Source: a virus. Taken from it: DNA of 64,000 bases. The notes below the pieces were generated by a model. The model had not been told where the DNA came from. It did not search any database and was given only the letters and a program-made list of their open reading frames with translations. Numbering within the stretch: the first letter of the stretch is position 1; every line of letters starts with the position of its first letter. Location: positions 5,874 to 69,873 of IMG/VR virus record IMGVR_UViG_3300021399_000007. One strand, given 5' to 3'. Both the position numbers and the translations under genes were made by a program. Positions 3 through 36,065 of the stretch are shown in pieces.

Positions 3-1147
3 AGTCATTGGCTTGAAGTAGTAACTTGGAGAAAACAACATTACGAAAAAATTTTATTTAAAGAAGGTATATTTGAAGAAAGAAATGCAGGTTTTCAAAC
101 TAGTGGAGCACCTTCAGCAGACGGAACAAAAGTTTCTTGGCAACCTTCTGAAGAATTTTTTACTCATACTGAAGTTGAAATAAATAAAATTAGAGATTTA
201 TTTAAAACTATTGTTTGTCTTTGTCCTGGGTTAACTATTAATTTAAACAATAATGGAAAAGAAGAGCATTACATTTCAACAAAAGGACTTCATGATCTTA
301 TTGATGAAGCAGTCGGTGATAAAGAAATAATTAATAATAGATTTAGTGTAATATATAATGAACCTCATGGAAAAAATAAATTAGATATTGCATTAACATA
401 TACATCTAACTATTCTTCAACTATTGTTCCTTATGTTAATACTGGCCTAACAGAATCTGGGCCTCATATTACTCAGATTAAAACTATTATTACAAAAGAA
501 TTTAATAAATTCTTTAAAGAAAAGAAATGGTTGAAAGAAAAAGATACTAATTTAACTGGTGATGATATTCAAGAGGGAATGTATGTGGTATTTAATATTA
601 CTGCTCCTAATGTTGGATATGATGCACAGGTCAAAAGTAGAATTACAAAAATTGATATGACGCCATTTACTTCTGCTTTAAGCACAAATCTTGAAATATG
701 GCTAAATAACAATGAAAAAGAAATAAAAAGTATTTTTGAAAAGGCAGTTGCCGCGCGTAAAGCACGAGACGCCGCAAAGAAAGCAAGAGACAAGGCAAGA
801 GAGCAAAATAAAAAGAAACAGAAAGCTCTTAAATTTGATAGTAAACTTGCTGATTGCAATTCAAAGGATAGAAGTAAGTGTGAAATTTATATTACTGAGG
901 GAGATAGTGCATCTGGTAATTTAAAACTTGCTCGTGATAATGAAACACAGGCGGTTATGCCAGTTAGAGGTAAAATTTTAAATACTCAGAAAGCTACTTT
1001 TGCACAAATCCAAAAAAATGCAGAAATTATGACAATGTGCGATGCGTTTTTTGGACCTGGAGATTGGTCTATTGATCCTAAAACTCTCAAGGTAACATAT
1101 CATCAAGTAAGATATGGAAAAATTATTATCATGTCTGATGCCGACGT
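3..1147 (+). CDS. Type II DNA topoisomerase large (ATPase/TOPRIM) subunit, GyrB / T4 gp39-like, exon 1 (5' end lies outside the window)
   Basis: Open frame from the window start. TOPRIM motifs EGDSA and PVRGKILN are present. Homology to GyrB (IIIMSDADV...) stops abruptly at 1147 and resumes at 2205. Confidence 0.8.
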
Positions 1148-2204
1148 CAGTAACACGGCGTATGAAAGACTTTTCGCTTAATCAGGCGGGTAAAAATTTT
1201 TGGTCAACTTTGTATTATGTGATATGTACATTTTTCATATAATATGAAGGAGAAAAGAATTTTTGCTAACGGGGAATCCTAAACCAAATGGCATGGAAAT
1301 CCCGTGGGAAACAAATATTAATTCATTCTCTTTCAATAAATCAATGAAGGAGAATAAAAATGATAGGAATTTATAAAATTACAGAAAGAAATAATCCAAC
1401 AAATTTTTATGTTGGTCAATCAAATGATATAGATAGAAGATTTAAAGAGCATATTTATAAAACATCAAAACAATCACGTATTCCTTTTGATGATTAGATA
1501 ACTAATAAAGGAAAAGATGCTTTTTTATTTGAAGTATTAGAAGTATGTTCTATAGATGAATTAAATGATAAAGAAAAATATTGGATAAATAAATTAAACG
1601 CTATAAAATCTGGCAATAAAAATGAAGGTGGATTAACAGATGTCATAGGCAGTCACAATCCAAAAGCAAAATTAACAGAAGAAGATGTGATTCGAATTAG
1701 ACAAGCTTATGCCAACCATGAGCGCCAAAAAGATGTATATAAAGAATTTGAAAACAAAATTTCTTTTGGTTATTTTCAAAATCTTTGGCAAGGCAGATCT
1801 TGGTCACATGTTATGTCAGAAGTCTTTACGGAAGCGAATAAACAATATTATATTTATCAAAATTCACAGGGTAGTAATGGAGTTTCCGCTCAATTTACTG
1901 ATGAAGAAGTAATTCAACTTCGACATAGATATGTAAATGAAACTGCCAAAAAAATTTATGAAGATTATAAAGATCGAGTATCCTATCAAACATTTCAAGC
2001 TATGCTTTGGGGAAGAAGTTACTCAACGCTTCCTATTTATAAAAAGAAAGAAAAGAAATGGATTAATATTTGAACCTGTATCGACTATTCCCTTTGCCTT
2101 CTGGGCGGGGAAGTAGGACTGCTATTGATACGCAGTTCGAAATGGTCTCCTCTCAATAGAGAGTAAAAGATAGTCAGTGCTTATGGAAACATAAGAATAA
2201 CACG
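1148..2204 (+). mobile_element. Group I (IA-like) self-splicing intron interrupting the topoisomerase gene
   Basis: The exon reading DADV|DGAHI is restored by joining 1147 to 2205. The 5' exon ends in T and the intron ends in G. A T4 td-like core is present (CTAACGGGGAATCC ... GGAAATCCCGTGGG P3/P4/P6-like; GGACTGC...TAGTC P7-like; GNRA hairpin CTTATGGAAACATAAG P9-like). It contains a homing endonuclease ORF. Confidence 0.65.
1369..2073 (+). CDS. Intron-encoded GIY-YIG homing endonuclease (contains one in-frame TAG at ~1495)
   Basis: N-terminal GIYKITE...YVGQS...RFKEH...E..YWI GIY-YIG motifs. The frame continues through TAG into track ORF 1687..2073. Confidence 0.7.
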
Positions 2205-5722: not shown

Positions 5723-7660
5723 ATGACAATGCGTGGAATAATAGATATGCTTAATTATCATACTACATTATATGATAAAGGTAAAAGTGTATGGTCTGAT
5801 AAAGAATGGGATGAATTATATTTTAAACTTCAAAAATTAGAAAAAGAAACTGGTATTATTTATCCAGATTCACCAACTCAAAAAGTTTATTTTGAAAAAG
5901 TTTCTGAATTAAAAAAAGTTAAACATAATCATCCAATGTTGTCTCTTGATAAAACAAAAGATATAGAAGATATCAAATCTTTTATAAAAGGACATGATTG
6001 GGTGGCCATGGCAAAAATGGACGGATTAACTTGTTCATTACATTATGTTGATGGAAAACTGGTTTCCGCAGAGACAAGAGGAAATGGTATAGAAGGAGAA
6101 GATATTACTCATAATGCTTTAATAATTTCATCTATCCCTAATCAAATTAATTATAAAAAAGAATTAATTATTGATGGAGAAATTATTTGTACTTACAAAA
6201 ATTTTGAAAATTTTAACACTGAGTATAAAAATCCACGAAATTTTGCGAGTGGCAGTATTAGACTACTTGATTCAAAAGAATGTGTAAAAAGAAAATTAGA
6301 TTTCATTGCATGGGATGTAATCAAAGGGTTTAATAAAGAGACTTTGACAGAAAATCTTATTGAATTACGGCAGATTGGTTTTACAACAGTTCCATTAACA
6401 ATTAAAAATTTAATAACTCCAGATATTAATTCTGCAATAAATTTTTTAAAGGAACATTGTGAATTAAAGTCATATCCTATTGATGGGATTGTATTTAAAT
6501 ATGATAATGTTAAAGAGTATGAGGCGGCTGGCCGCACAGATCATCATTTTAAGGGCGGCTTAGCGTATAAGTTCTATGATGAAACTTATGAAACTCATTT
6601 AAAATATATCCAATGGACAATGGGAAGAACTGGTGTTCTTACTCCAGTAGCAGTATTTGATCCTATTGATATTGATGGTTCAATAGTAGAAAGAGCAAGT
6701 TTACATAATTTAAGTGTAATGGAAAATATTTTAGGTATTCCTTTTGAAAAACAAAAATTACAGGTTTTTAAAGCAAATATGATTGTTCCGCAAATTTATA
6801 GTGCAGAAAAACCAAAAGAAAAACCTAGTAGTCCTATTATTCCATTAATAGAAAAATGTCCTATTTGCGGTGAAGATGTAGAAATTATTAACAATAATGG
6901 TGTAAAAATTATTGTATGTACTAATCCCTCATGCCAGGGGAAATTTATTAATATACTTGAGCATTTTTGTGGGAAAAAGGGTCTTGATATTAAAGGATTA
7001 TCTAAAGCTACTTTTCAAAAGTTAATTGATTGGGGATGGCTTGAAAATCTTGAAGGAGTTTTTAATCTTAATCAATATAGAAATGAATGGATTAAAAAGC
7101 CTGGTTTTGGAATAACTTCTGTAGATAAAATCTTAAAATCAATAGAAGAGCATAGACATACAACACTTGATGCCTTTATATCTGCGATTGGTATCCCCCT
7201 TATAGGGCGGGCAGTAGCAAAAGATTTAATTAATTATTTTGAAACTTATGAAGATTTTCGTAATGCAATTGATGATGATAAATATGATTTTTCCATATTA
7301 GATAATTTTGGAGAAGAAATGAATAAAAGTATTAAAAATTTTGATTATGCGGAAGCTGACAGAATTTCTAAACTTTTAATTTTTGAAACTCCTGTTGTTA
7401 ACAACGTTCAAATAAATAATAGTCTTACAGGAAAAACTATAGTTATTACGGGAAAACTTACTACATTTAAAAATAGAGCTGAATTAAAAGCTGTTATTGA
7501 ATCTCATGGTGGAAAGGTATCAGATTCTATTTCTGGCAAGACTGATTTATTAATTAACAATGATGTAAATAGCACATCATCTAAAAACAAAGCTGCGAAG
7601 GCACGCAATATACCTATTGTTTCAGAACTAGATTTTATAAAGCAATATATTGAAAACTAA
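5723..7660 (+). CDS. ligA: NAD+-dependent DNA ligase (LigA-type)
   Basis: KMDGLT adenylation motif, a Cys4 zinc finger (CPICGE...CTNPSCQG), HhH region and a C-terminal BRCT-like domain. 645 aa. Confidence 0.85.
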   Translation: MTMRGIIDMLNYHTTLYDKGKSVWSDKEWDELYFKLQKLEKETGIIYPDSPTQKVYFEKVSELKKVKHNHPMLSLDKTKDIEDIKSFIKGHDWVAMAKMDGLTCSLHYVDGKLVSAETRGNGIEGEDITHNALIISSIPNQINYKKELIIDGEIICTYKNFENFNTEYKNPRNFASGSIRLLDSKECVKRKLDFIAWDVIKGFNKETLTENLIELRQIGFTTVPLTIKNLITPDINSAINFLKEHCELKSYPIDGIVFKYDNVKEYEAAGRTDHHFKGGLAYKFYDETYETHLKYIQWTMGRTGVLTPVAVFDPIDIDGSIVERASLHNLSVMENILGIPFEKQKLQVFKANMIVPQIYSAEKPKEKPSSPIIPLIEKCPICGEDVEIINNNGVKIIVCTNPSCQGKFINILEHFCGKKGLDIKGLSKATFQKLIDWGWLENLEGVFNLNQYRNEWIKKPGFGITSVDKILKSIEEHRHTTLDAFISAIGIPLIGRAVAKDLINYFETYEDFRNAIDDDKYDFSILDNFGEEMNKSIKNFDYAEADRISKLLIFETPVVNNVQINNSLTGKTIVITGKLTTFKNRAELKAVIESHGGKVSDSISGKTDLLINNDVNSTSSKNKAAKARNIPIVSELDFIKQYIEN

Positions 7661-8231: not shown

Positions 8232-8822
8232 ATGTTATTTATAATATTAAGTTTTATTTTTTTAATATTTGGTTTAATTCTTTTTTACAAAGCCAATCAA
8301 ATAAAAATTAATAAAAATGAATAGCAAGAAAAATATAAACAAATATTAAAAAATCAAATTACTCAATTAAAAATTGAGATTGATGCTTTAAAGCAATCTC
8401 AATTTAAAAAACAAAAAGAAATTGATTAGTAGTTAATACAATGGCAGGCTAATCGTAAAAAAGAAATTGAAGTATATATAGAAAGTCAAAAACAATTAGC
8501 TGATCAAACTGTAAATACAGTATATGAATCTGCCCAAAAGCAAATTTCAGATATTAATAATGATATTCAAAGTACTCGTAATATAGCATTGCAAGAAAAA
8601 AAATAGATACAAACTGAAATTAATAAATTAAAAGCCTCATTAAGTGCGGGTGTTGAAGCTCGTCTCCGCGAACAATAGAAAAAAGATAAAATTAATTTTT
8701 ATAAACTTTCTATTTCTGAAGCAGATTTAGCTGATGTAAAAATGCTATAGAATTTAAAATCTTCTTTTCATAAACCTGTTGTTTTAAGTAAACTTATATG
8801 GACTCAATATTTCCAAAAACAA
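8232..8822 (+). CDS. Membrane-anchored coiled-coil protein with 6 in-frame TAG codons (possibly fused to the downstream endonuclease frame)
   Basis: ATG at 8232, an N-terminal hydrophobic helix, and a Q/K-rich coiled coil. TAGs include a tandem TAGTAG. The same frame continues into 8823 with no TAA or TGA. Confidence 0.4.
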
Positions 8823-9149
8823 ATGACAGAATTATGTGATAGAATTTTAGGAAAAAAGACTGTTTGTGGCATTTATAAAATTACTAATTTATTAACAGAA
8901 CAATGTTATATTGGTCAAAGTGTTAATATTAGTGATAGATGGAAGCAACATTGTAAATGCGGTTTAGGTATTGAAGCATCCGCAACAAATGTTTTATATA
9001 ATGCCATGCAAAAAAATGGAGTATGGAATTTTAGTTTTGAATTATTAGAATAGTGTTCAAAAGATCAATTAAATGAAAAAGAAAGATTTTGGATATAGAT
9101 GTATCAAAGTAATAAATTTGGTTTAAATACTACAAAGGGGAATTTATAA
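8823..9149 (+). CDS. Free-standing GIY-YIG homing endonuclease (2 in-frame TAG)
   Basis: GIYKITN...YIGQS...RWKQH...FELLE(TAG)CS..NEKERFWI(TAG)MYQ parallels the intron HEG segment LEVCS..NDKEKYWINKL residue for residue, with TAG at sense positions. Ends at TAA 9147-9149. Confidence 0.6.
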
Positions 9150-9379: not shown

Positions 9380-10256
9380 AAATACACAAGTTTGGGGATT
9401 TGAACATGCAATACGAGGTATGAGAAATCCTAAAAATAGTTGGGATAAAAGCGATAGTTATTTTAATATTACAGATGATTATGATGAAGGGATTCTTGAT
9501 GTAGCTGACGCCTGGGTTTATCAAAATTATCCTGAGTTGAATGGGCATGAAGATACTAAAGAATTTTTTGATTTAGAAGATAAATGTTGTAATTGGTTAC
9601 TTACAGAAGGAATTTTAAAAGAATCCAAAAATTATCAGTATAGGGATAATGCTTTTATCGGACCTAATGATATGAAACTTGCCCAAACATTGATTAAGGC
9701 CGGTCCAGAACATCGTAAATTTTTACGACAAATTTTTGTATCAGTTGATATTACAGCTCCACTTTATTGGTGGAAATAGATGGATACTTATAAAATTGGA
9801 ACCATCGCTAATAGTACATCAACAATGCATAAATTAACTAGTAAACCTATTACTATTGATTGTTTTGAAACAGATGATATGAATCCTGATTTAATATATT
9901 ATAGTATTCCAGAATATGCAGGTGGACCAGCAAAAAATGATATTGGAATGTTATCTGATTTTATGATTGAACAGCTTGAATTTCTTCGTCAAAAATATAT
10001 TGAAACAAAAAATAAAGGATACTGGAAAGAACTCGTGCGGTGGTTGCCTGAAAGCTGGTTACAAACTAGAACTTGGACCGCAAATTATGAAGTCCTTCAT
10101 ACTATTGCTCATCAACGTAAAAATCATAAGTTAAATGAATGGAGCGGGCAAGATGATCCATCTAAAAATAATTTTATTAAATGGATGCATGAATTACCTT
10201 ATGCTCAATATTTAATTTTTGATGATGAAAATATTCCTTTTCAAATTGAAAAATAA
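9369..10256 (+). CDS. hypothetical protein; track ORFs 9369..9779 and 9780..10256 fused through a single in-frame TAG; weak ThyX-like segment
   Basis: Both ORFs share one frame, separated only by TAG at 9777-9779. APLYWWK(TAG)MDTYK resembles the ThyX APIFVARQWFRHR region, but the RHR motif is absent. Confidence 0.4.
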
Positions 10257-10323
10257 AAAATAAAATGTTATAATATAATTACAAGATGAAAATTATATTA
10301 TAAATGAAAAGGAAAAATCACAA

Positions 10324-10695
10324 ATGACTAAGAAAGAAGCCTTTATTGATTTTGTAAATTATTTTTTTGAAGATAATGATGTACGTTTTGAGAATGATGG
10401 AAAATTTCAATTAGCTAAAGAATTTTTTGAAGATTTTAAAAATAATAAAATCAAAAATTCAGGAGCCATGACAGAAAATGGTAAGAAGTTACTTTCTTGG
10501 ATGCAGGAGAATGTAGATACAATGACTAATCTCTTTACATCCAAAGAAGCAGCTGAAGCCCTTTTTACCTCAGGTCGCTCTATTGCAGGTTCTATGCGTA
10601 AATTGGTAAATGATGGATATGTGGAAAAAACTGGTAAAGATCCCGTCCAGTATTCTCTTACTGAAGCCGGTAAGAGTTATCAATTTGAAAAATAA
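10324..10695 (+). CDS. hypothetical protein
   Basis: ORF with an RBS and an upstream TGTTATAATATAA motif. Confidence 0.4.
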   Translation: MTKKEAFIDFVNYFFEDNDVRFENDGKFQLAKEFFEDFKNNKIKNSGAMTENGKKLLSWMQENVDTMTNLFTSKEAAEALFTSGRSIAGSMRKLVNDGYVEKTGKDPVQYSLTEAGKSYQFEK

Positions 10696-10754
10696 AAAAA
10701 TTTTTGTTATAATATAAAAGTAAAAGTTGATTAATAAAAAGGAGAAAAAATTAA

Positions 10755-11741
10755 ATGAAAGCAAACGCAAGATTTATTAACACAGAAAAAATTGAAGGAT
10801 ATGTTTATAGTACAGGTAGTAATTTTAATCAGCTTTCTGAAAGGGTTTCTGGAGAGAACTCCAAAAATCCTGGTACTAAATATATTGCAGGTGATCTTGA
10901 CATTGCAGTAGATGAGGCTGGTTTGAACGTAATCAGCATTCATTATACTTATGTAACTGAAACTTATAAAAGTGGTCAGACAAATAATACATATACCGCC
11001 CTTAAAAAGATTATTGATAACCCCGAAAAGACCTGGGTAAATGGCGGAAAAGAAAATGCTTTCAAAATCCAGTGTACTGGAACAGCTCTCGCAATTAATG
11101 ATTTTATTGCAGCAGATGGATCAAAAGTTGCCGCAGTAAGAAATGAAAATGGATTCTGTTCTATCGTGAATGAACTTGGACCAGAGGCAGAGAGAAATAC
11201 TTTTACAGCAGATATGTTGATTACAAAAGTAACTCATGTAGACGCTGATCCCGAAAAGAATATTGCTGAAGATTTTGCAACTATCAGCGGAGCAATTTTT
11301 GGATATGGGCCAGTTCTTTTGCCTGTTTCTTTCGTTGTTCGTAATGAAATGGGTATGAATTATTTTGAAAATCTTGAAGCGACTCCTTCTAATCCTGTTT
11401 TCACAAAGGTTTGGGGGCGTATCAATTGCATGACAATTAAGACAGAAAGAACTGAAGAATCTGCATTCGGTGAAGCAGCGGTTCAGACTTATGAAAGAAA
11501 GAGTCGTGAATATGTTGTAACTGGTACTGCTAAGGTTCCTTATGATTTTGGTGATGAAGAAGTTCTTACCGCAGCAGACGTAAATAAGATGACTCAGGAT
11601 CGTCAGGTTATGCTGGCAGAAGTTGAAAAGAGATATAATGAGCGTCAGGCTAATAAGGCCACTGGTGGAGTAAATTTTAATGCAGCTGCTGCAACAAAAG
11701 CTGCACAGACTGCAGTACCTGAAGGTGGATTTGTATTTTAA
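10755..11741 (+). CDS. hypothetical protein, possibly recombination-associated (adjacent to a Sak4-like ATPase)
   Basis: 328 aa ORF with an RBS AAGGAG. No motif I can name. Confidence 0.4.
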   Translation: MKANARFINTEKIEGYVYSTGSNFNQLSERVSGENSKNPGTKYIAGDLDIAVDEAGLNVISIHYTYVTETYKSGQTNNTYTALKKIIDNPEKTWVNGGKENAFKIQCTGTALAINDFIAADGSKVAAVRNENGFCSIVNELGPEAERNTFTADMLITKVTHVDADPEKNIAEDFATISGAIFGYGPVLLPVSFVVRNEMGMNYFENLEATPSNPVFTKVWGRINCMTIKTERTEESAFGEAAVQTYERKSREYVVTGTAKVPYDFGDEEVLTAADVNKMTQDRQVMLAEVEKRYNERQANKATGGVNFNAAAATKAAQTAVPEGGFVF

Positions 11742-15915: not shown

Positions 15916-16104
15916 ATGGATGATAAAGTTTTTAGATATAGAAAAAATCATAAAAAATGTAAATATTGTAAATATTATCATGTTGACGGAGCAATACAAT
16001 TAGGTATAGTTTATGACCATTGTAAAGCCAAAGATACTATTATTTATAATATAGACATCCCACGATGGTTTTGTTCATGTTATGAGGTTAAAAATGAATT
16101 TTAA
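15916..16104 (+). CDS. small Cys-rich protein
   Basis: CKYCKYYH...HCKAK...CSC pattern. Confidence 0.3.
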   Translation: MDDKVFRYRKNHKKCKYCKYYHVDGAIQLGIVYDHCKAKDTIIYNIDIPRWFCSCYEVKNEF

Positions 16105-17191
16105 GTATAATAAAGATACACTTAAAGAAAATCTAACAATAGAAGAAGTATTTGATCTTGTAAGTGAATTGGGCGGTGAACCTATAATGGGAAATGGATT
16201 ATTTACCGCCCGCACAATTTGTCATGGTGGTGATAGTCATAAATTATATTACTATGAAAATACTCGATTATTTCATTGTTATACAGGATGCGGCGATGCT
16301 TCATTTGATATATATGATTTGGTATTAAGAGTTAATAAGGCTGCTGGTATTCAAAATTTTTCTTTACCTCGTGCTATTGCATTTGTAGCTCGATACTTTG
16401 GATATACAGCAGAAACATTCAATTTTGAAGATAACCAAGAAGCAAATGAAGATTGGCAAATTATTAATAACTTTAAAAGAAATAAGGAAAAAAATCAACC
16501 GCAAATTGTAGAATTAAAAACTTATAATAATAAAGTGTTAAGATATTTACCTCATCCGCATATTATTCCTTGGGAGCAAGAAAACATAACATTTGATATT
16601 ATGGAGTCAAGAGGAATCTGTTATGACCCTATTAATGAAGGAATTGTTATTCCTCATTATGATATAGATGGAAATCTTGTTGGTATTAGAGAGAGAACGC
16701 TTATAAAAGAAAATGAGGTATATGGTAAATATCGCCCTGCATATTTAAAGGGGAAGCTTTATAATCATCCTCTTGGATTTAATTTATATAATTTAAATAA
16801 TAGCAAAAAAGCAATTTCTACATTTCAAAAAGCTATTGTATTTGAAGGAGAAAAAAGTTGTCTTAAATATGCTTCATATTTTGGACAAGAGTCAGATATA
16901 AGCGTTGCTTGTTGTGGCAGCAATTTAATTAATTATCAAGTCAAACTGCTTTTATCTCTTGGAGTAAAAGAAATTATTATTGCACTTGATAAACAGTTTC
17001 AAAAAATTGGTGATAATGAATGGCAGAAATGGGTTATTAAATTAAAAACTTTATATAATAAGTATGGTAATTATGTAAATATTAGTTACATGTTTGATAA
17101 AGATAATTTACTTGGATATAAAGATTCACCAATAGATTGTGGGAAGGATACATTTTTACAATTATTTAAAAAAAGGGTTACAATAGAATGA
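16082..17191 (+). CDS. DNA primase (DnaG-like, CHC2 zinc finger + TOPRIM)
   Basis: CHGGDSHKLYYYENTRLFHCYTGCG zinc-binding motif, and TOPRIM-like EGEKS...D.D segments. Confidence 0.6.
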   Translation: MRLKMNFKYNKDTLKENLTIEEVFDLVSELGGEPIMGNGLFTARTICHGGDSHKLYYYENTRLFHCYTGCGDASFDIYDLVLRVNKAAGIQNFSLPRAIAFVARYFGYTAETFNFEDNQEANEDWQIINNFKRNKEKNQPQIVELKTYNNKVLRYLPHPHIIPWEQENITFDIMESRGICYDPINEGIVIPHYDIDGNLVGIRERTLIKENEVYGKYRPAYLKGKLYNHPLGFNLYNLNNSKKAISTFQKAIVFEGEKSCLKYASYFGQESDISVACCGSNLINYQVKLLLSLGVKEIIIALDKQFQKIGDNEWQKWVIKLKTLYNKYGNYVNISYMFDKDNLLGYKDSPIDCGKDTFLQLFKKRVTIE

Positions 17192-17571
17192 ATATAAAAA
17201 TTTTTATTTTAATATCAATGATTTTTTGTCACATTGTTGATGATTATTACTTACAAGGATGGCTAGCTTCTGCTAAACAAAAATCTTGGTGGATAAAAAA
17301 CGCTCCAAATAAATTATATAAAAATGATTATTTAATGGCTTTATTTTGTCATAGTTTTAGTTGGTCTTTCATGATTCAACTACCCATTTTAATTTATAGT
17401 TTTTATACGCATTTATTTATATGGAATATATTATTATTTATTATAAATGTAATTATTCATATGTTTGTAGATAATTTAAAAGCAAATAAATTAAAAATTA
17501 ATTTAATTCAAGATCAAATTATTCATTTTATTCAAATTGTTGTAACTTGGTTTATAATAATCACATTTTAA
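17188..17571 (+). CDS. small integral membrane protein
   Basis: Several hydrophobic helices. Overlapping start. Confidence 0.4.
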   Translation: MNIKIFILISMIFCHIVDDYYLQGWLASAKQKSWWIKNAPNKLYKNDYLMALFCHSFSWSFMIQLPILIYSFYTHLFIWNILLFIINVIIHMFVDNLKANKLKINLIQDQIIHFIQIVVTWFIIITF

Positions 17572-17587
17572 AAGAAAGGTAATAAAA

Positions 17588-18388
17588 ATGAATGCAAATC
17601 CGTGGAGATATAAAGAAGATAATAAAATAAAAGCACAAAAACAAATTAAATATATGGATGAGAATTTTGCTAATGAAACTGCGACGGCCATTGCTGACAC
17701 AAATATTTATACTGGTCCATTAAATAAAAATGACTGGACTAAAAATGGCTTTAATCCAGTTCCATATTCACAACTACTTGATATGGGTACTGTTGATGCA
17801 ATTTTTCATGTTCGAGAAGTCTTAGGAGAAGATAATAAAGAAATTAAAGTTGCTGCTCTCAATTTTGCATCATATAGAAATCCTGGCGGAAAATTTATTG
17901 ATGGTAGTAATGCTCAAGAAGAGTGTTTATGTCATGAATCTAATCTTTATAATATTTTAAGAAATTTCATATCATATTATAAAGAAAATAATTCTAAACC
18001 AAATAAAAATCTTTATACTGATAGAGCATTATATTCTCCAAATGTAATTTTTAATAGAGGAGATCATATAGTTAAAGCGGATGTGATTACTTGTGCCTCT
18101 CCAAATTGGACTGCCGCCCGAGAATGGAATGCTTCTCAAGTTGAAAATACTCTTGTATTAGCTCAACGTATTCAGTTTATTAAAGACATTGCAGAACTTG
18201 AAGCAGTTGATGTTCTTATTCTTGGAGCATGGGGATGTGGAGTATTCGGACAAAATCCAAAAACTGTTGCAAGATTATTTGATTTTATTTTTAGAGAAAG
18301 TGAAATTAAAAATATTGTATATGCCGTTCCTGGAGGATTAAATTCTGATAATTTTAAAGCCTTTGACGAATATATTAGAAAGAGTTGA
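17588..18388 (+). CDS. Macrodomain protein of the bacterial-type PARG (DUF2263) family
   Basis: PARG signature GG-X7-QEE (NPGGKFIDGSNAQEE) and diphosphate-binding loop GAWGCGVFGQN. Confidence 0.55.
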   Translation: MNANPWRYKEDNKIKAQKQIKYMDENFANETATAIADTNIYTGPLNKNDWTKNGFNPVPYSQLLDMGTVDAIFHVREVLGEDNKEIKVAALNFASYRNPGGKFIDGSNAQEECLCHESNLYNILRNFISYYKENNSKPNKNLYTDRALYSPNVIFNRGDHIVKADVITCASPNWTAAREWNASQVENTLVLAQRIQFIKDIAELEAVDVLILGAWGCGVFGQNPKTVARLFDFIFRESEIKNIVYAVPGGLNSDNFKAFDEYIRKS

Positions 18389-18457
18389 TTTGATAACTCT
18401 TTCTTTTTTTGTTATAATATAAATAGAAATATTATAAAACTAAAGGGAAGAAAATGT

Positions 18458-20257
18458 ATGAAATATGAATTAATTAATAAACCAAATAAAAATTTTTCAG
18501 CAGTTCAACAAATCCTATATAACAGAGGAATTACAGAAGATGAAATTTTACATTATGTAAATTTATCTGACTAGGATATTAATTCTCCATTATTATTAGG
18601 CGAACAAAATTTAAAGCAAGGATTAATATTAATTTTAAACACTATAAAACGAGATGATAATGCAGTAATTATTGTAGATTGCGATTGTGATGGATATACA
18701 TCTGCCGCATTATTAATTAATTATTTATATAGATTATTTCCAACATGGGTAATTGGTAATTTAGATTGGATTATGCATGATAGTAAACAACATGGGTTAT
18801 CAGATTGCTATCAAAATATCGTTGAAGGAAATTTTATAACTAATAAACAATATTCATTGGTTATATGTCCAGATTCAAGTAGTAATGATTATAAATATCA
18901 TAAATTTTTATATGATAATGGAATCCAAACATTGGTATTAGATCACCATTTAGCAGATCATATTAGTGATTATGCTGTGATTATTAATAATCAACTTTCT
19001 AATTATCCTAATAAGGAGTTATCTGGAGTTGGTGTAGTTTGGCAATTTTGTCAATATATAGATTCAATATTAGAAGTTAATTATGCAAATGATTTTCTTG
19101 ATTTAGTGGCACTTGGAAATTGTGGAGATATGATGTCTTTACGTTCTTTTGAAACGCGCTATCTTATTACAAAAGGATTCAAAAAATAGAATATAAAAAA
19201 TCCTTTTATTGATTATATGCTTGATAAAAATTCATTTCCATTATCAAAAGCAGATTATATATCTTCTGATCCATAGATGGCATGTACTTCTATGGGCGCC
19301 GCTTTCTTTATTGTTCCTTTTGTTAATGCTATTACACGGAGCGGGACTCAACAAGAGAAAGAATTACTTTTTAATTCCATGCTAAATCATAAAGCTTTTG
19401 AAGAAGTTCTTTCAAACAAACGAGGACATAAATTAGGAGAAAAAGAAAAATTAATTTTACAGGCAGTTAGAACAGTTACAAATGTTAAAAATAGACAAAC
19501 AAGAGCAGAAGATGCAGGTTTGGCTATGTTAGAAAAAATGATTGAAACTAATCACATGCTTGACCATAAAATTCTTTTATTCTTATTAGAACCAGGCCAA
19601 ATTGATTCTGAAATTCGTGGTTTAATTGCAAATAAATTCATGGCAAAATATCAAAGACCATGTTGCTTATTAACACGGACCAATAGAAATGGAAAAGAAA
19701 CTTATGAAGGTTCAATGAGGGGATATACAAAAACTGGCATTGATAGTTTTAAAGAAGTGCTTGAACAATGTCCTGGTATTACCTATGTAGAAGGTCATGA
19801 TAATGCGGCGGGCGTTGGTATTGAGGCAAACCATATCGAAGACTTTCTTTACCACATTGACCAGCTTTTAGAAGATGTTTCTGTTGAGCCTATTTATAGA
19901 GTAGATTATGATTTTAAAGAAATTGATAACAATAATCAACTCATTTTAGAAATTGCAAGTATGAATGATTATTGGGGTCAAGATATTGATAGAGCATATG
20001 TAAATATTAATTTTAAAATTACAAGTTCTAATTTTCAAATTATGAAAAGTAATACTTTAAAATTTAATCTTCCGAATGGGTTATCTATTATTAAATTTAA
20101 TGGAACTGATGAGGAAATTACTCAATTTACAACTACAGGATATTTAGAATTAAATGCAATCTGTAAATGCAATGCCAATGAATGGAATGGTCGCGTTTAT
20201 CCGCAGCTGTTAATGGAAGATTATGAAATTATAGATTCCTCTAAATATTTCTTTTAA
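18458..20257 (+). CDS. DHH-family phosphoesterase (RecJ-like exonuclease), 3 in-frame TAG
   Basis: DCDCDGYTSAALL and LVLDHHLADH DHH motifs. TAGs at ~18570, 19189 and 19274 join the N-terminus to track ORFs 18773..19189 and 19277..20257 in one frame. Confidence 0.6.
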
Positions 20258-20854: not shown

Positions 20855-22023
20855 GAAGAAGGTTTGAAAGTTGCCGTAGCCAGACACCGTGCAAATGAAA
20901 AATACACAGTGATTGCTGGCTACGCCTAAGAGCTGGTACAGGAAAATCCACACTTGTAAGATATATTATTGATGCTCTTAATGTTGAAGAAGATAGAGTA
21001 TGTCATTGTGCTTTTACAGGTAAAGCCGCAGAAGTATTAAAGAAAAAGGGAAATAAAAATGTAGCAACTCTTCATCGACTATTATATGAACATATACCGC
21101 GGCCAGCGGGTGGTTTCTTTAGAAAACCAAAACCATTTATTGATTATGATGTAATTGTAGTTGATGAAGTTTCTATGGCTCCTAAATCTTTAATGGAATT
21201 GCTGTTTAAACATCAAGTATATGTTATTTGTTTAGGAGATCCATTTCAGTTGCCGCCCATTGATAAAGATGAAGATAATCATTTATTAGATGATCCTCAC
21301 ATTTTTCTTGATGAAATTATGAGACAGGAAGAAGATTCTGAAATTATTCAGCTTACCATGAAAATCAGAAATCAAGAACCGATTGATTATTTTAATGGTA
21401 ATGAAGTAAAAATTATTCCTTACTCAGATTTAAACACTGGGGTATTACAATGGGGAGATCAGATCCTAACCGCAACAAATGCAAAGCGTCAAGCTATTAA
21501 TAATCAAATGCGCGCACTACAGGGTAGGACTGGTGAGCCTGTTGATGGAGATAAAATTATATGTCTTCGTAATTATTGGGAAGATTCAAGTTTAAATGGT
21601 GATGCTTTAATCAATGGAACTATTGGTATTCTTCAAAATAGTTTTCAAACTTGGAGAGAAATTCCCAGATTTGTACAAAGTGATATAAGAAAATTTGATG
21701 TTTTAGTTGGTGATTTAGTGGTACCAGAAACTAATGATGTTTATCAAATGACAGAAATGGATCGTCAAATGATTATCACTGGAGAAAAATGTTGCGGATG
21801 GCAATTGTCATATAAGTTAGGAAAGCTTCGATTAAAATATGGTGATTTAGTGCCTAAAGAATTTGCCTATGCATACGCAGTTACTTGTCATAAAGCACAA
21901 GGAAGTTCTTGGCCTAATGTAGTAGTTTTAGAAGAATCTTTTCCATTCGATAGGATGGAGCATGCTCGTTGGCTTTATACTGCATGTACGAGAGCAGAAA
22001 AAAAATTAGTTTTAGTACGATAA
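20834..22023 (+). CDS. Dda-like SF1B DNA helicase; N-terminus and Walker A lie in different frames (-1 frameshift or indel near 20920-20930)
   Basis: MFLTKKQEEGLKVAVARHRANEKYTVIAGYA(TAA) continues in the -1 frame as LRAGTGKSTL...VVDEVSM..., matching the T4 Dda N-terminus LTEGQKNAF...HHVTINGPAGTGKTTL. The downstream frame is track ORF 21175..22023. Confidence 0.65.
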
Positions 22024-22095
22024 AAACCGGTCAAAAGTGTATAATTTATATAATCTAATTTTTATATATTATAGAAAAACATAGGAGGAACGATT

Positions 22096-22848
22096 ATGTC
22101 GAAAATAATAGATATGACTGGTGCTAAAATTAATTATTTAACTGTTATTGAAAGAGGTCCAAATACAGCAGATGGCCGAGCTCAATGGCTGTGTTAGTGT
22201 AAGTGTGGTAATAAAAAATTAATTAAAGGAAAAGATTTGCGAAGCGGAAGAGTTAAAAGCTGCGGATGTTTACAAAAATAGCGAGCCAGTGAAGTAAATA
22301 CTATAAATGAAGTAGGTAATCAATATGGATTTTTAACAGTATTACGGCGAGCTACAAAAGAAGAAGCTCCAAAAAGTAATCAAAGAAATGTTTTTTGGGT
22401 TTGTTCTTGTTTGAATTGTGGAAACCCCTATTTTATTGCGGATGCTCATTCTTTAAGAACTGGACGATTAAATAGTTGCGGTTGTTTAATTAGCAAAAAT
22501 GAAACTAAAATTAAACAATTACTAACAAAAAATAATGTTTCTTTTGAAACCCAAAAAACTTTTAATAATTTATTAGATAAACAAAAATTAAGTTTTGACT
22601 TTTATATAAACAATCAATATATAATAGAATTTGATGGTAAACAACATTTTATTCAAGATAGTGGTTGGAGTAATAGAGAAAAGTTAGAATATACTCATAA
22701 TCATGATTTAATAAAAAATAGATATTGTTTTGAACATAACATTCCATTAATTAGGATACCATATAATGCAGAATATACTTTTGAAGATTTAAAACTAGAA
22801 ACTACAAGATTTCTTTTAACTCCAGAGAATGAAGAAAAATATTATTAG
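22096..22848 (+). CDS. Putative free-standing homing endonuclease (repeated Zn-binding C..C..GN/SCGC modules + C-terminal EFDG..H nuclease-like domain), 2 in-frame TAG
   Basis: Repeats KINYLTVIER...WLC(TAG)CKCGN...KSCGC and FWVCSCLNCGN...NSCGC. C-terminal IIEFDGKQHF...HN. TAGs at ~22197 and ~22280. Confidence 0.45.
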
Positions 22849-23131
22849 AAAGGAGAATGATATGAAATATATTCAAACTAAATTTTGCAAAGGAACTTTT
22901 ATTCTTGAAAAACATATTAATTTAAATAATTTTTTAAATGAAGATGAGCAAAAAAGATTTTATGATTTAAAAAATACTGATGAAAATGAAATGTCTGATG
23001 AAGATTTTGAATGGTATGAAGATGTTTTAAATAGAATTAAAGAAGAATCTGATTTTGTTGAATCAGAAGTAGTTTCTTATGAAGTTGATGACTGGGAAGA
23101 ATATGATGATGAAAATTATTTAATGGAGTAA
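22829..23131 (+). CDS. acidic hypothetical protein
   Basis: D/E-rich ORF. Confidence 0.4.
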   Translation: MKKNIIRKENDMKYIQTKFCKGTFILEKHINLNNFLNEDEQKRFYDLKNTDENEMSDEDFEWYEDVLNRIKEESDFVESEVVSYEVDDWEEYDDENYLME

Positions 23132-29288: not shown

Positions 29289-29360
29289 TTAATTTATATA
29301 AGCAAATTTTAAATAATATAGTAACCCTAAAAATATTTTATCTAATTAGGAGAGGATGTA

Positions 29361-31647
29361 TATGATTTATGTAATCAAAAGAGATGGCAGAAAAATGCCA
29401 TTCAACACAGAAAAAATAAAAAATGCAATTTTGAAAGCCTTTAAAGCAGTAGATGGTTAGATTTCAGATTATGCAGAAACTAAAGCAGAAAATATTGCTA
29501 ACTATATTGAAGGTTACTGCGAAGAAGAACTTGAACCATTATCTATTGAAGAAATTCAAGATTTAGTAGAAAATGGTTTGATGTCAACAAAACGAAAAGA
29601 CGTTGCTAAAGCCTACATCAAATATCGTGAAAATCGCACAAGAGAAAGAAATTGGAATAATAACATGATGCGGGCAGCGCAAGAAAAACTCACCGGATCC
29701 CGTATCGATAATCAAAATGCTAATGTCGATGAACATTCATTTGGCGGGCGTCGTGGAGAATTTGATTCTGTTATTTCTAAACAATATGCTTTAGATAACT
29801 GTATGTCAAAGATGTCACGAGAAAATCATTTAAATAATGAAATTTATATTCATGATTTAGATGCATATGCGGTTGGTATGCACAACTGTCTTAGTATGCC
29901 ATTGGATGATTTGCTTGCAAATGGTTTCAACACTCGTCAAACGGATGTAAGACCCGCAAATTCAATTAATACAGCTTTTCAATTAGTTGCTGTTTTATTT
30001 CAGCTTCAAAGTTTACAACAATTTGGCGGAGTTTCAGCAACCCATCTCGACTGGACAATGGTTCCATATGTAAGAAAATCATTTTTCAAACATCTTAAGG
30101 ATGGTTGTCAATACATATTAAAAATAAATTTTGATAAATATGAAACAGTTTTTAATGGAACTGATCCAATAGATTTTGAAGGATATAAAACATTTCATGA
30201 AGCATATGATTATGCAATGGACATGACAAAAAAAGAATTAGAGCAAGCAGTTGAAGGAATGTATCATAATCTTAATACTTTACAAAGTAGAAGCGGAAAT
30301 CAGCTTCCTTTTACATCAATAAATTACGGGACCTGCACACTTCCTGAAGGGCGTATGGTTATTAAAGCCATATTAGAAGGTAGTATTAAAGGTGTTGGTA
30401 AATTTCATAAAACTCCAATCTTCCCTTGTGGTATTTTTCAAGTAATGAGCGGAGTCAATAAAGAGCCAGGAACACCAAATTATGATTTATTTAGATTAGC
30501 TCTTGAATCAACAGCAAAAAGATTATATCCAAATTATGCTAATGTTGATTGGAGCGGAAATGCTGGTTATGACCGGAATGATCCAACTACATATTTTTCA
30601 ACAATGGGATGTCGTACAGCCAATGGTTTCGATATAAATGCAGACCCAGGCGTAAATCCGCAACGAAAAGATGGACGCGGCAATATTTGTCCTGTAACTA
30701 TTATTCTTCCTACTATTGCAATGGAAGCAAAAAATGCTTCTGATGATTGGATTAAACAAAGTGAATTATTACATGGAGAATGGGCAGGTATTCAATCTGA
30801 ACTTTATATAGATAAGTTTATGACACTTTTGGATAAAAAAATCCACGAAGCTAAAGATATGCTTCTTGAAAGATTTGAATATATTTGTTCGCAAGACCCA
30901 TCTTCTGCAAAATTTATGTGGGAAAATCATACTATGTTAGGTTATAAACCAGAAGAAGGAATTCGTTCTGCCCTTAAACATGGCACAATAGTAATTGGTC
31001 AATTAGGTCTTGCAGAATGTTTACAAATTCTTATTGGTAAGGATCATACAACAGAAGAAGGTATGGAATTAGCTAAACACATAGAACAATTATTTAAAAA
31101 TAGATGCGCCGAATTTAAGCAGCAATATAAACTTAATTTTGGTGTTTATTATACTCCTGCCGAGAATCTTTGTTATACAGCGATGAAAAAATTCCAAGAT
31201 AAATATGGAAAAATTCCAAATGTAAGTGATAAAGAATTTTTCACTAATAGTATGCATGTTCCAGTTTGGAAAGAAATTGATCCGTTTACAAAGATTGATA
31301 TTGAAAGTCAGCTAACTGGATATTCTTCTGCGGGGTGTATTACTTATGTAGAATTAGACAGCGGAATTTTACATAATATTGATGCATTAGAACAAATTGT
31401 AAATTATGCTATGGATAAAGATATTCCATATTTTGCATTAAATATTCCAAATGATTTATGTTTAAATTGCGGTTACACTGGAGAAATCAATGACGAATGT
31501 CCTATGTGTAAAAGCAAAAATATCCAAAGACTTCGTAGAGTAACTGGTTATTTAACAGGAGATTATAAGACCGCATTTAATCTTGGGAAACAGCAAGAGA
31601 CAGAAATGAGATTTAAACATTCAACATTATTAAGAGGATATAAATAA
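29361..31647 (+). CDS. nrdD: Anaerobic ribonucleoside-triphosphate reductase NrdD with N-terminal ATP-cone (1 in-frame TAG at ~29457)
   Basis: ATP-cone (MIYVIKRDGRKMPFNTEKI) upstream. Glycyl-radical motif RRVTGYL and a C-terminal Cys4 Zn site. TAG joins the ATP-cone to track ORF 29578..31647. Confidence 0.85.
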
Positions 31648-31649
31648 AA

Positions 31650-32210
31650 ATGATAACAAATATTAAAAAATCTATTTTAGCAGGTATTCTTATTGGATTA
31701 GGTGTTTTAATTAATTCTCAATCAGATTATCCGCCTTTAGGAGCATTATTATTTAGTTTTGGGCTATTAACTATAATTCAAATGCAACTAAATTTATATA
31801 CTGGTAAAATTGGTTATTTCACTCAAATGCACGAATGGAAATTTTTAATTACCGTACTATTATTTAATTGCATTGGAATTGCGGCGACCGTAGGTTTATA
31901 TGCACTCGGTAACCAGAACTATTCAAGTATTATATCTGCGGCTGCCGCTACAAAATTCGCAAAACCCGCATTAACGTTATTTATTAACGCCTGCTTTTGT
32001 GGGGCACTAATTCATTTTGCTGTAAAAAATAAAATAACTATATTAACAATTTTTGCAGTTATGATTTTCATCCTTATCGGAGCAGAACACTGTATAGCTG
32101 ATTTCCCATACCTTTTATTCAATTTATCTCCTATTAATATTTTAAAATTTATTGCAATTATTTTTGGTAATTCAATAGGCGCAATATTAATTGAAAGGTT
32201 AAATAAATAA
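31650..32210 (+). CDS. integral membrane protein (about 6 TM)
   Basis: Hydrophobic throughout. Sits between nrdD and nrdG. Confidence 0.4.
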   Translation: MITNIKKSILAGILIGLGVLINSQSDYPPLGALLFSFGLLTIIQMQLNLYTGKIGYFTQMHEWKFLITVLLFNCIGIAATVGLYALGNQNYSSIISAAAATKFAKPALTLFINACFCGALIHFAVKNKITILTIFAVMIFILIGAEHCIADFPYLLFNLSPINILKFIAIIFGNSIGAILIERLNK

Positions 32211-32212
32211 AA

Positions 32213-32698
32213 ATGGATAGATATGCAGGTTTAATAACTAATGATTTTGCAAATGGAGTTGGCACTTGCGTCTCATTTTGGACGCAAGGCTGCCCGCACC
32301 GCTGTCCTGGTTGTCAAAACCCATAGACATGGGATTTTAAAGGTGGAAAAGAAATTCCCACAGATATACGAGGACAAATTATTAAAGCTATTTGTGCAAA
32401 TGATATTATAAGAAATTTTTCAGTCTTGGGCGGAGAGCCTTTATGTGAAGAAAATTTAGATGAAGTTGAAAAAATTATTACAGCAGTAAGAACTGCTTAT
32501 CCGCACATAAAAATTTTTGTATGGACTGGTTATACTTTAGAAGAGTTGTTAGAAAAATAGGATGAAAAAATTAATAGTATTTTATCTCAAATTGATATTT
32601 TAATAGATGGTCGTTTTATTCAAGAGGAAAGAGATATTACTCTTGAATTAAGAGGAAGTAAAAATCAACGAGTCTTATATCGAGGAATTGATTTTTAA
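32213..32698 (+). CDS. nrdG: Anaerobic ribonucleotide reductase activating protein NrdG (radical SAM), 2 in-frame TAG
   Basis: CPHRCPGC radical-SAM cluster motif and GGEP motif. TAGs at ~32318 and ~32558. No ORF appears in the track because of the TAG interruptions. Confidence 0.7.
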
Positions 32699-34934: not shown

Positions 34935-35702
34935 TTACTAAATAGATTTTATTGTTTCTCCAATTGTTTCATTAGCGATATTTTGTAATGTTTGTTTTAA
35001 ACTTACATTTATTGAACGCTATGCTTCTTTATTTTCTTTTTTCTTTTTAATTAAATATTCTTGAATAGCCTAGAAATTGTTTAATTTATTATTAATAATT
35101 TCTTGTGCCATATTAAATAATTGTTCAATACTTAATGTAGTAGCTTGATTTGATTTTACTGCCATCTACATATTATTAATAGTAGTATCACCTTCTAAAG
35201 TACCTGATAAGTTTGTTACTTTCATTACATAACTCATAAATTGTTCCATATTATCTTCTGGCACATTGGTATGAATAAAATGTTCATGTAATAATAAAGT
35301 CGCATAAGCTTCATTTATGCTACCGAAAGAAGAAACCAAAACGCCATTCCATTTTTGTCCACTATATGGATAAAGCCATAAAATATATGCTCCGCCATTA
35401 GATCTTTTATATTTATTAAATCTCTAATATGCTGTATTATATGTAGATTTTAACGAGGAATAATTAAAATTTTTAGTGTCCTATTGTATAGATTGTTCAA
35501 TTTTTGTAGCATGCTCTCGTAACATTTTTGCATTATTTCTATATCTAACAATTACATTACCATATCTATCTACATCAACTTTTAAAAAATCTGACATATT
35601 ATTAATTACATAAGTTTCTGGAACTCCTTTAGATCCAACCCATACATATGTTGTAGCAACTATTTGTCCCAATGCAGCATTTAAATATTCTTGAAATTTC
35701 AT
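34935..35702 (-). CDS. hypothetical late protein with several in-frame TAG
   Basis: Track ORF 35481..35702 continues in the same frame through about 5 TAG codons to TAA at ~34935. Confidence 0.4.
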
Positions 35703-35753
35703 TGCTAACTAATAAGTTTCTAAAATCCCTTTTTTTATTTCCTAAGAAAAATT

Positions 35754-36065
35754 CTATTTTCGAATTCTTAATCTCTCTTTTAAATAGATATCATATTCTG
35801 TAGTGTCTTTATAGGCTGCACCATTAGCTTTACAATTTGCTTTAAAACTATGCCAAGCTTTTATAGTTCGTTTTAATGCTGTCTCAAAATTAGAAATTTG
35901 CTTTATCATTATTTGATATTTTTCTATAAACTTTGATGCAGTTTGTATAATAATTTTATAGCTCTTTTGAACTTCCTGCGCTTCAACAGAGGTTGATGCA
36001 TTTAAAATAATTTTAGTATTAACATCTAATTCATTTTTATCAAATTGAATATCTACTTGTGACAT
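35754..36065 (-). CDS. hypothetical protein
   Basis: ORF preceded by a terminator hairpin AGGGAGGGTTAATTATAATCCTCCCT at ~36085-36115. Confidence 0.4.
   Translation of the reverse strand: MSQVDIQFDKNELDVNTKIILNASTSVEAQEVQKSYKIIIQTASKFIEKYQIMIKQISNFETALKRTIKAWHSFKANCKANGAAYKDTTEYDIYLKERLRIRK

Follow-up and report, generated by a model that had tools for sequence, protein, structure and literature searches.

A bacterial-type poly(ADP-ribose) glycohydrolase carried as accessory cargo in the replication module of a TAG-recoded phage

The 64,000-nucleotide stretch analyzed here (positions 5,874 to 69,873 of the IMG/VR virus record IMGVR_UViG_3300021399_000007, hereafter the window) contains, among its replication genes, an open reading frame (ORF) which a preliminary description had read as a phage-encoded macrodomain of the poly(ADP-ribose) glycohydrolase (PARG) type and as a plausible counter-defence enzyme, with DNA ADP-ribosylation by DarT-type toxins as the example. 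The locus raises the question of what such an enzyme does in a phage, and specifically whether the gene encodes an intact PARG, whether it belongs to the core replication machinery, and which ADP-ribose (ADPr) adduct it would remove.

Identity and active site of the phage PARG

The ORF at 17588–18388 lies exactly where it had been placed, on the plus strand, and encodes 266 residues. The protein was matched end to end by the TIGR02452 profile (189.6 bits against a cutoff of 50, E = 7e-56), with residues 26–260 covering positions 24–265 of 266, and by PF10021, the microbial-type PARG catalytic domain (88 bits against a cutoff of 23.5, E = 1e-24). These models, PF10021 (PARG_cat_microb, formerly DUF2263) and TIGR02452, define the bacterial- or microbial-type PARG family, and more than 7000 homologues of the phage protein are present in a large protein database. 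The eukaryotic PARG model PF05028 gave 11.6 bits, which is under its cutoff of 26.3, and matched the diphosphate loop only. Among solved structures, significant sequence matches were obtained only to the PARGs of D. radiodurans (DrPARG; E = 1e-23 with the single sequence and 4e-41 with the profile) and T. curvata (TcPARG; E = 9e-19 and 6e-37). An AlphaFold2 model built from 61 sequences had a predicted local distance difference test score (pLDDT) of 91.5 and a predicted template modelling score (pTM) of 0.90, and it shows the macrodomain fold with the N-terminal helical extension. In a Foldseek search of the PDB, the best fold match was TcPARG (3SIG/3SIH) with a template modelling (TM) score of 0.83 over ~280 aligned columns including the helical extension, followed by DrPARG with 0.71–0.81, while ordinary macrodomains reached only ~0.4–0.5. 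The profile, fold, and residue tests thus fully support the assignment of the ORF as a full-length bacterial-type PARG macrodomain with its Glu pair intact, in agreement with the preliminary description, which would have been overturned by a missing macrodomain fold or a lost Glu pair; the fold and the pair were both looked for and are present. The family, its fold, and its chemistry are already known, and the protein is recognized by Pfam and NCBIfam.

The signature peptide NPGGKFIDGSNAQEE was present as described, and only its spacing has to be corrected from GG-X7-QEE to GG-X8-QEE, as eight residues lie between Gly101 and Gln110. The layout is G100-G101-K102-X7-Q110-E111-E112, that is, GGK-X7-QEE compared with the canonical GGG-X6-8-QEE. 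Gly100, Gly101, Gly106, Ala109, Gln110, Glu111, and Glu112 are unchanged in 121 of 121 sequences, and the catalytic function of the QEE glutamates is known from earlier work (PMC6445106, PMC8120803). The third position of the signature is Met in 51, Lys in 49, Arg in 7, and Gly in 5 of the 120 nearest homologues, and because it varies in this way we regard GGK as characteristic of the subfamily rather than as damage to the motif. The loop GAWGCGVFGQN, also noticed beforehand, is found at residues 213–223, and Gly213, Ala214, Gly216, Gly218, Val219, and Phe220 are invariant among the 120 nearest homologues.

The pocket is expected to differ from that of TcPARG at the “ribose cap”, in which Arg268 and Asp261 block the 2'-OH of the adenosine ribose and render TcPARG exo-only (PMC6445106). 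The near-invariant Asn255 of the phage PARG aligns with Arg268 of TcPARG and Thr267 of DrPARG, the register being set by the T267K chain of DrPARG, and Gly249 is placed opposite Asp261 of TcPARG and Asp260 of DrPARG. The alignment passes through a loop here, and we state with moderate confidence that a TcPARG-like, exo-only Arg-Asp cap is missing from the phage enzyme. TcPARG has the same catalytic signature, with an identity of 25–26%. DrPARG (DRB0099; PDB 5ZDA–5ZDG) is the best sequence match among solved structures, with 27–29% identity in a structure-based alignment; it shares with the phage protein the QEE motif, the GAWGCGVF loop, and a small uncharged cap residue (Thr267 and Asn255, respectively), but it has GGG where the phage protein has GGK, and its gene is chromosomal and DNA-damage-induced.

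Table 1 Features of the PARG locus and selected genes of the replication module.
Feature	Position	Strand	Remarks
PARG coding sequence	17588..18388	+	ATG to TGA, 266 aa, no in-frame TAG; ORF list and sequence
PARG signature NPGGKFIDGSNAQEE	17879..17923	+	aa 98–112; catalytic pair E111/E112; aligns to the QEE motif of DrPARG and TcPARG
Diphosphate-binding loop GAWGCGVFGQN	18224..18256	+	aa 213–223; aligns with LGAWGCGVF of DrPARG
Asn255 codon, “ribose cap” position	18350..18352	+	profile alignment to DrPARG wild type and T267K chain
DNA primase, left border of the junction	16082..17191	+	phrog_47, E = 3e-38; synteny in L001, L003, L007–L012; junction survey
DUF3307/phrog_2470 small membrane protein	17188..17571	+	127 aa; PF11750, E = 6.5e-4 (under the curated cutoff); phrog_2470, E = 4.5e-13
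Ribosome-binding-site-like AGAAAGG	17573..17579	+	8 nt upstream of the PARG ATG; read from the sequence
Intrinsic-terminator-like hairpin, 11-bp stem and T7 run	18377..18411	+	terminator scan; overlaps the PARG stop codon
RecJ-like exonuclease (DHH/DHHA1/RecJ_OB), right border of the junction	18458..20257	+	Pfam; three in-frame TAG
NAD-dependent DNA ligase	5723..7660	+	adenylation, OB, HhH, and BRCT domains
Formate/nitrite-transporter-family channel	31650..32210	+	between NrdD and its activase NrdG, within 29356–32698

Genomic setting and distribution

The gene is phage-encoded, as had been proposed: portal, large terminase, and virion structural protein genes are found in the minus-strand block of the window at 34–50.6 kb, and PARGs with 92–94% identity occur on IMG/VR contigs of 133–140 kb. 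One genome of 133,306 bp is circular, because its PARG gene is divided between its two ends. The window belongs to a TAG-recoded phage of ~133 kb and the carrier is a phage of the gut/rumen type. No match was obtained when window 15–21 kb was compared by megablast with 50,697 phage records, and no relatives were recovered with window 61420–61788 as an anchor. The “early region” of the preliminary description corresponds to the plus-strand block at 0.5–34 kb, which does hold replication and nucleotide-metabolism genes and is better termed a replication module. The block starts with a GyrB fragment, GyrA, the NAD (nicotinamide adenine dinucleotide)-dependent DNA ligase, an AAA_24 ATPase, and DnaB helicase, continues with the primase, PARG, the RecJ-like exonuclease, a helicase fragment, and DNA polymerase III (Pol III) alpha, and ends with a guanylate-kinase-like enzyme, NrdD, a formate/nitrite-family channel, NrdG, and dUTPase.

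Within this block, the start of the DUF3307 gene overlaps the primase stop codon (ATGA), and PARG begins 16 nt after the DUF3307 gene. The hairpin at the end of PARG folds as RNA with -11.4 kcal/mol (z = -2.83). From the overlapping or closely spaced genes and the terminator, we conclude that PARG closes a primase-DUF3307-PARG transcription unit. The best promoter-like site of the region (18390–18418; scan score 11/12, extended -10) precedes the RecJ-like gene. An Rfam scan of the window gave no structured RNA family above threshold and no group I intron.

The junction between the primase and RecJ-like genes was surveyed with the primase as an anchor, in 31 relatives showing both genes. It was nearly empty in 10 of the 31 loci (gap of 66–92 bp) and held a small insert in another 10 (215–351 bp), with an ORF of ~80–88 residues in 6 of the 7 examined. 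DUF3307 alone was present in three loci (470 bp), homing-endonuclease-like genes in two (742–920 bp), and PARG, with or without DUF3307, in six (869–1271 bp). The presence of PARG differs even among phages whose primases are 94–95% identical to that of the window, and a 132.7-kb genome with a capsid-block gene of 95% identity has an empty junction. Complete genomes of both kinds are represented, for example, by IMGVR_UViG_3300021400_000126, which carries PARG, and IMGVR_UViG_3300037400_003961, in which the junction is empty. PARG is a dispensable accessory cargo at a variable primase/RecJ junction, and this placement is a newly described context for the family. Its accessory status at a variable site is more in keeping with a role in conflict than with a core role in replication.

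Two other occupants of the junction recur. A conserved protein of ~87 residues with the motif FGCHIAIADWLPFGEV is an alternative cargo at the equivalent of window 17191–18458 (L319:6188–6449, L322:5436–5700, L327:6172–6433, and L342:6201–6459, where L numbers designate the loci examined). The DUF3307/phrog_2470 protein, with a conserved HxxDD..LQGW motif, is encoded adjacent or close to PARG in 4 of the 25 PARG clades, which are otherwise divergent, and its copies elsewhere are at L019:5461–5856, L016:4911–5330, L054:7166–7537, and L078:3025–3429.

PARG relatives were found on at least 233 IMG/VR contigs, mostly of 90–275 kb. In the set of cultured and record phages they were limited to Lak megaphages, phage G (gp114), and a few uncultured phages, at 27–41% identity, and virus “microbial-type PARG” proteins are already catalogued in BFVD from giant viruses and some phages (E = 3e-16 to 1e-10). 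These catalogued virus proteins (phage G gp114, Lak, the “TIGR02452 family protein” of uncultured siphoviruses, and giant-virus PARG_cat_microb) share the family and fold and are uncharacterized, but the window PARG falls in a distinct clade with relatives of 74–94% identity in TAG-recoded phages of ~130–144 kb. The nearest cellular homologues (40–45%) come from metagenome-assembled genomes (MAGs) of Lachnospiraceae, Oscillospiraceae, Eubacterium, and Erysipelotrichaceae. The two bacterial copies examined lie in regions resembling mobile genetic elements (MGEs), with Fic, N6-methyltransferase or SNF2 fusions, and nucleotidyltransferase genes.

Clustering of 85 PARG loci at 70% identity gave 25 clades, among which no universal neighbour of PARG was found. 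In 9 of the 25 clades, a count to be read without a background rate, an RNA ligase, polynucleotide kinase, or Thg1 gene lies within 6 kb of PARG and often directly adjacent to it. The ligase belongs to PF09414, in some cases with a PHA02142 OB-fold domain, and had no sequence match among solved structures; the best solved relatives of the AAA_33 kinase are the polynucleotide 5'-kinase domains of C. thermocellum (4GP6/4GP7/4JST, E ~1e-9). Further recurrent neighbours of PARG are a putative metallophosphoesterase, an RNase T-family exonuclease, and DUF2828. Gene orders such as PARG-ligase-kinase mirror DRB0100-DRB0099-DRB0098 of D. radiodurans, a ligase-PARG-kinase/phosphatase operon (PMC11833690). 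The position of the DrPARG gene between a ligase and an HD/polynucleotide-kinase gene is thus found again beside PARG in several phage clades, whereas the neighbours in the window are the primase and the RecJ-like exonuclease. Among 80 bacterial genome loci, Thg1/kinase neighbours were seen in only one (L096), probably a phage contig that had been assigned to a MAG during binning. The recurrent linkage of PARG with RNA repair across phage clades is likewise a newly described context.

Several features of the replication module and of the relatives are recorded here in their own right. As the phage has its own NAD-dependent ligase, a loss of NAD would affect its replication directly, and DNA ends blocked by ADP-ribose possibly would as well. 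Class III ribonucleotide reductase uses formate as its reductant, and with a channel gene between NrdD and NrdG the phage may import or retain formate. Replication genes seem to be broken up by homing endonucleases in the window (579–2073, 8232–9149, and 21175–22860) and in L001 and L003. Specifically, the GyrB fragment breaks off within the Toprim domain, with a GIY-YIG-like ORF coming next, and only the C-terminal part of a UvrD/RecD-like helicase is present, adjoining a zinc-finger endonuclease-like ORF; in relatives, GIY-YIG or LAGLIDADG genes interrupt the RecJ-like and Pol III alpha genes. L001 (ENA ERZ28656263 scaffold_9, 285,255 bp) carries a syntenic PARG with 74% identity on a contig about twice the typical 130–144 kb, and may represent either a larger relative or an assembly that is concatemeric.

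Candidate substrates and functions

In the literature searched, no function has been described for a phage PARG, and the discussion of jumbo phages by Iyer et al. covers generic Macro and NADAR domains only (PMC7824862). The bacterial-type PARGs characterized so far hydrolyze the O-glycosidic bond at C1'' in poly(ADP-ribose) (PAR), in RNA carrying ADPr on the 2'-OH, and in ADPr linked to 5'- or 3'-phosphates of DNA or RNA (PMC11833690, PMC8120803). In particular, SCO0909 of Streptomyces coelicolor and DRB0099 reverse the 2'-OH ADP-ribosylation of RNA by RhsP2 as well as ADPr on phosphate ends, and shield cells from the toxin (PMC11833690). DrPARG leaves Glu- and Ser-linked mono-ADP-ribose on protein (PMC6445106). 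The activities shown for SCO0909 underpin the mechanism that we propose (PMC11833690); it belongs to the same DUF2263/PF10021 family and is likened to the phage PARG by that membership, but it is a cellular protein, described outside any phage setting, with a proposed role in immunity during interbacterial competition.

We propose, at about even confidence, that the phage PARG is a nucleic-acid de-ADP-ribosylase acting as a repair-type counter-defence. Judging from its homologues, the enzyme would bind a terminal ADP-ribose, and the QEE glutamates would hydrolyze the O-glycosidic bond at C1'' of the distal ribose. The gene would be transcribed last in the primase operon, as an optional cargo within the replication block. 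The substrate would be ADP-ribose attached to nucleic acids through a ribose 2'-OH or terminal phosphates, on RNA, RNA primers, or DNA/RNA ends, and such adducts could be installed by host ADP-ribosyltransferase (ART) toxins or defences. Once they are removed, priming, end processing, NAD-dependent ligation, and translation would be able to continue. We infer the substrate, the existence of a host ART, and the advantage for the phage from the chemistry of the homologues, the accessory status of the gene, its replication and primer context, and the RNA-repair linkage in other phages.

Several observations weigh against this proposal. The characterized PARGs are only 25–29% identical to the phage protein and have GGG in place of GGK. 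The protein was not matched by PADLOC or PHROGs profiles. A tblastn search of the window gave no homologue of the RNA ligase, kinase, Thg1, metallophosphoesterase, or DUF2828 genes, and the PARG clade of the window lacks them, so that the RNA-repair linkage rests on other lineages. No partner ART or poly(ADP-ribose) polymerase (PARP) was found among ~40 window proteins or the annotated contexts of homologues in a non-exhaustive search. To our knowledge, no anti-phage system produces ADPr on 2'-OH groups or phosphate ends.

The enzyme might instead be directed at protein, trimming poly- or oligo-ADP-ribose made by a host PARP-like enzyme or a phage ART, as counter-defence or self-regulation. 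PAR hydrolysis is the founding activity of the family, as in TcPARG and DrPARG (PMC8120803, PMC6445106); bacterial PARPs with PARG partners are known from Clostridia and Lachnospiraceae (C. difficile and Butyrivibrio; PMC8120803), the latter being, with Oscillospiraceae and Erysipelotrichaceae, among the sources of the nearest cellular homologues, and ARTs and PARPs have been reported in jumbo phages (PMC7824862). However, no PARP or ART lies beside PARG in the contexts examined or among the window genes scanned, and the MacroD/TARG partner to be expected, because PARGs leave the protein-proximal ADP-ribose, was not found either. Bacterial PARP is also not an established anti-phage system, and we regard a protein substrate as fairly unlikely. 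We see a small chance that the target is an immune signal, the PARG opening the ribose-ribose bond of the Thoeris messengers 1''-2' or 1''-3' glyco-cyclic ADP-ribose (gcADPR) to give linear ADP-ribose. The 1''-2' linkage is the same bond that is cut in PAR and 2'-OH-ADPr RNA (PMC11833690; gcADPR structures, 10.1101/2022.05.07.491051), the gene is accessory cargo, the missing Arg-Asp cap (N255/G249) may leave the adenosine-ribose side of the pocket open, and phage enzymes of a different fold that degrade cyclic ADP-ribose isomers exist (PMC13232231). This is an argument by chemical analogy, no link between PARG and gcADPR appearing in the literature searched; a cyclic intramolecular substrate may not suit a pocket made for a terminal ADP-ribose, and the RNA-repair neighbours in other phages indicate nucleic-acid substrates.

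The location of PARG among replication genes would also suit the example given in the preliminary description, in which ADP-ribose is stripped from thymine or guanine of phage single-stranded DNA modified by DarT1/DarT2, and orphan anti-DarT hydrolases are known in phages (PMC11825919, PMC13309987). These enzymes, the AdfB-like NADAR proteins and a chimallivirus DarG2-like macrodomain, likewise represent phage-borne ADP-ribosylhydrolases used for counter-defence (PMC11825919, PMC13309987), but they are of the NADAR or DarG-like (TARG1/ALC1) type, not of the PARG type, and cleave N-glycosidic base adducts, unlike the O-glycosidic bonds cut by PARG; no member of the PARG class is known to act on such adducts. 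DarT adducts are reversed by DarG, with its TARG1/ALC1-like macrodomain, or by NADAR enzymes (PMC9967889, PMC11833690, PMC11825919); human PARG is inactive on DarT-modified DNA (PMC9967889), and only NADAR acted on guanine-base-linked ADPr (PMC11833690). All significant sequence matches and the best fold matches of the phage protein are PARGs, and no DarG or NADAR entry is found among the sequence matches or the top 50 fold matches. The DarT example is thus disfavoured, and we consider it highly improbable. A role in counter-defence or repair in general is still plausible and gains support from the patchy occurrence of the cargo, the many phage lineages, the MGE-like regions, and the RNA-repair neighbours. 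A housekeeping use, in which PARG handles ADP-ribose by-products of RNA repair (e.g., by Tpt1/KptA) or recycles monomers for the NAD-dependent ligase, appears very doubtful. Macro domains have been predicted in phage NAD-dependent RNA repair by Iyer et al. (PMC7824862), the window encodes such a ligase, and RNA-repair neighbours are present in other PARG clades, but neither the window nor the surroundings of PARG in the loci examined yielded a Tpt1/KptA, Nudix, or NAD-salvage gene, and processing of ADPr-1''-phosphate is an activity of the MacroD type and not of the PARG type.

Beyond the present gene, phage PARGs might as a group represent a widespread unrecognized counter-defence, either cutting Thoeris gcADPR or undoing an undescribed ADP-ribosylation of RNA 2'-OH groups or nucleic-acid ends alongside RNA ligase, kinase, and Thg1; we rate this broader idea as quite unlikely.

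In-frame TAG codons in the phage lineage

Many genes of the window become continuous only when TAG is treated as a sense codon, and every gene of at least 100 residues ends in TAA or TGA. The large terminase gene at 46339–48075 (-) contains eight TAGs, and the genes at 34935–36065 (-) and 37191–37937 (-) contain nine each. All in-frame stops of the RecJ-like gene are TAG (18572, 19187, and 19274). In alignments of replication-module orthologues, TAG stands opposite Glu in 51%, Gln in 15%, and Lys in 11%, while in the same alignments Gln codons align to Gln in 76% and Glu codons to Glu in 78%, and the log-likelihood of the TAG meaning is -335 for Glu and -473 for Gln.

The late region was compared across 39 independent loci, with 529 columns containing TAG; the majority sense residue was Glu in 253 and Gln in 74 of them. 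Among columns conserved to at least 90%, TAG occurs in 93 of 145 Glu and 36 of 78 Gln columns and in no more than 3.4% of the columns of any other residue. Across relatives, ~10% of the codons in conserved-Glu columns are TAG, and each non-Glu sense codon accounts for at most 0.4%. The individual genomes separate into two patterns. The window has TAG in 12 of 142 conserved-Glu and 0 of 74 conserved-Gln columns, and the same pattern is seen in L203 (34/142 and 1/74) and L186 (26/131 and 0/69). L200 and L205 each have 2 of 140 and 26 of 74, and L207 has 2 of 106 and 19 of 57, respectively; these three show the canonical TAG = Gln and serve as an internal positive control. In a third gene set, from the gyrase region, the lineage of the window has TAG 33 times in Glu columns and never in Gln columns. 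The agreement of three independent gene sets suggests that in-frame TAG behaves as a Glu codon and not as Gln in this lineage.

The loci with the Gln pattern, L200 and L205 (major-capsid-protein-like gene at 10001–11017) and L207 (10001–11029), belong to the same family, their capsid-block gene being 54–77% identical, so that two TAG reassignments seem to exist within one phage family. The distant gyrase-region loci L245, L234, and L250 also have the Gln pattern. Searches of the window and of ~110 related loci revealed no suppressor tRNA. A distant relative, L259, has an amber-suppressor tRNA (CUA) at 485–559 (+) within a tRNA cluster at 485–2336, with a tRNA-Gln-like acceptor (U1, G73, UGGGG...) and a U1·C72 mismatch. 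Many Bacillota form Gln-tRNA(Gln) indirectly, through Glu-tRNA(Gln) and then GatCAB. A suppressor without the GatCAB determinants would insert Glu, which would offer a one-step route between TAG = Gln and TAG = Glu. Only TAG-to-Gln and TGA-to-Trp were observed by Borges et al. in phages whose code differs from that of the host (10.1101/2021.08.26.457843), and a text search of the literature found UAG-to-Glu in ciliates only and not for phages.

The freedom of the PARG gene from TAG was considered as a clue to the timing of its expression and rejected, as 0 of 17 Glu codons is expected at the 3.8% TAG share of the block. No PARG orthologue has TAG at an invariant Glu or Gln position. A crude coverage test of 87 sequences (86 PARG loci and the window region) indicated 22 of TAG type and 15 of TGA type, which suggests that recoding of one or the other stop codon is frequent in large gut phages with a PARG gene. 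A separate clade of PARG phages (L062–L064, L067, L068, L070, and L072; PARG at ~6001–6768, 46–48% GC) is seemingly TGA-recoded, its ORF coverage rising from ~0.7 to 0.91–0.98 when TGA is read through.

If confirmed, TAG = Glu would be a stop-codon reassignment unreported for phages in the literature searched, and would outweigh the PARG finding in importance. As for PARG, the bacterial-type enzymes are common yet “functionally enigmatic”, and the first physiological rationale, protection from RNA-targeting ART toxins, dates from 2025. The occurrence of PARG as a patchy hot-spot cargo, linked to RNA repair in other phages, points to nucleic-acid ADP-ribosylation as a battleground between phages and gut/rumen Bacillota, and natural pairs of phages with and without PARG are available for testing the counter-defence idea.

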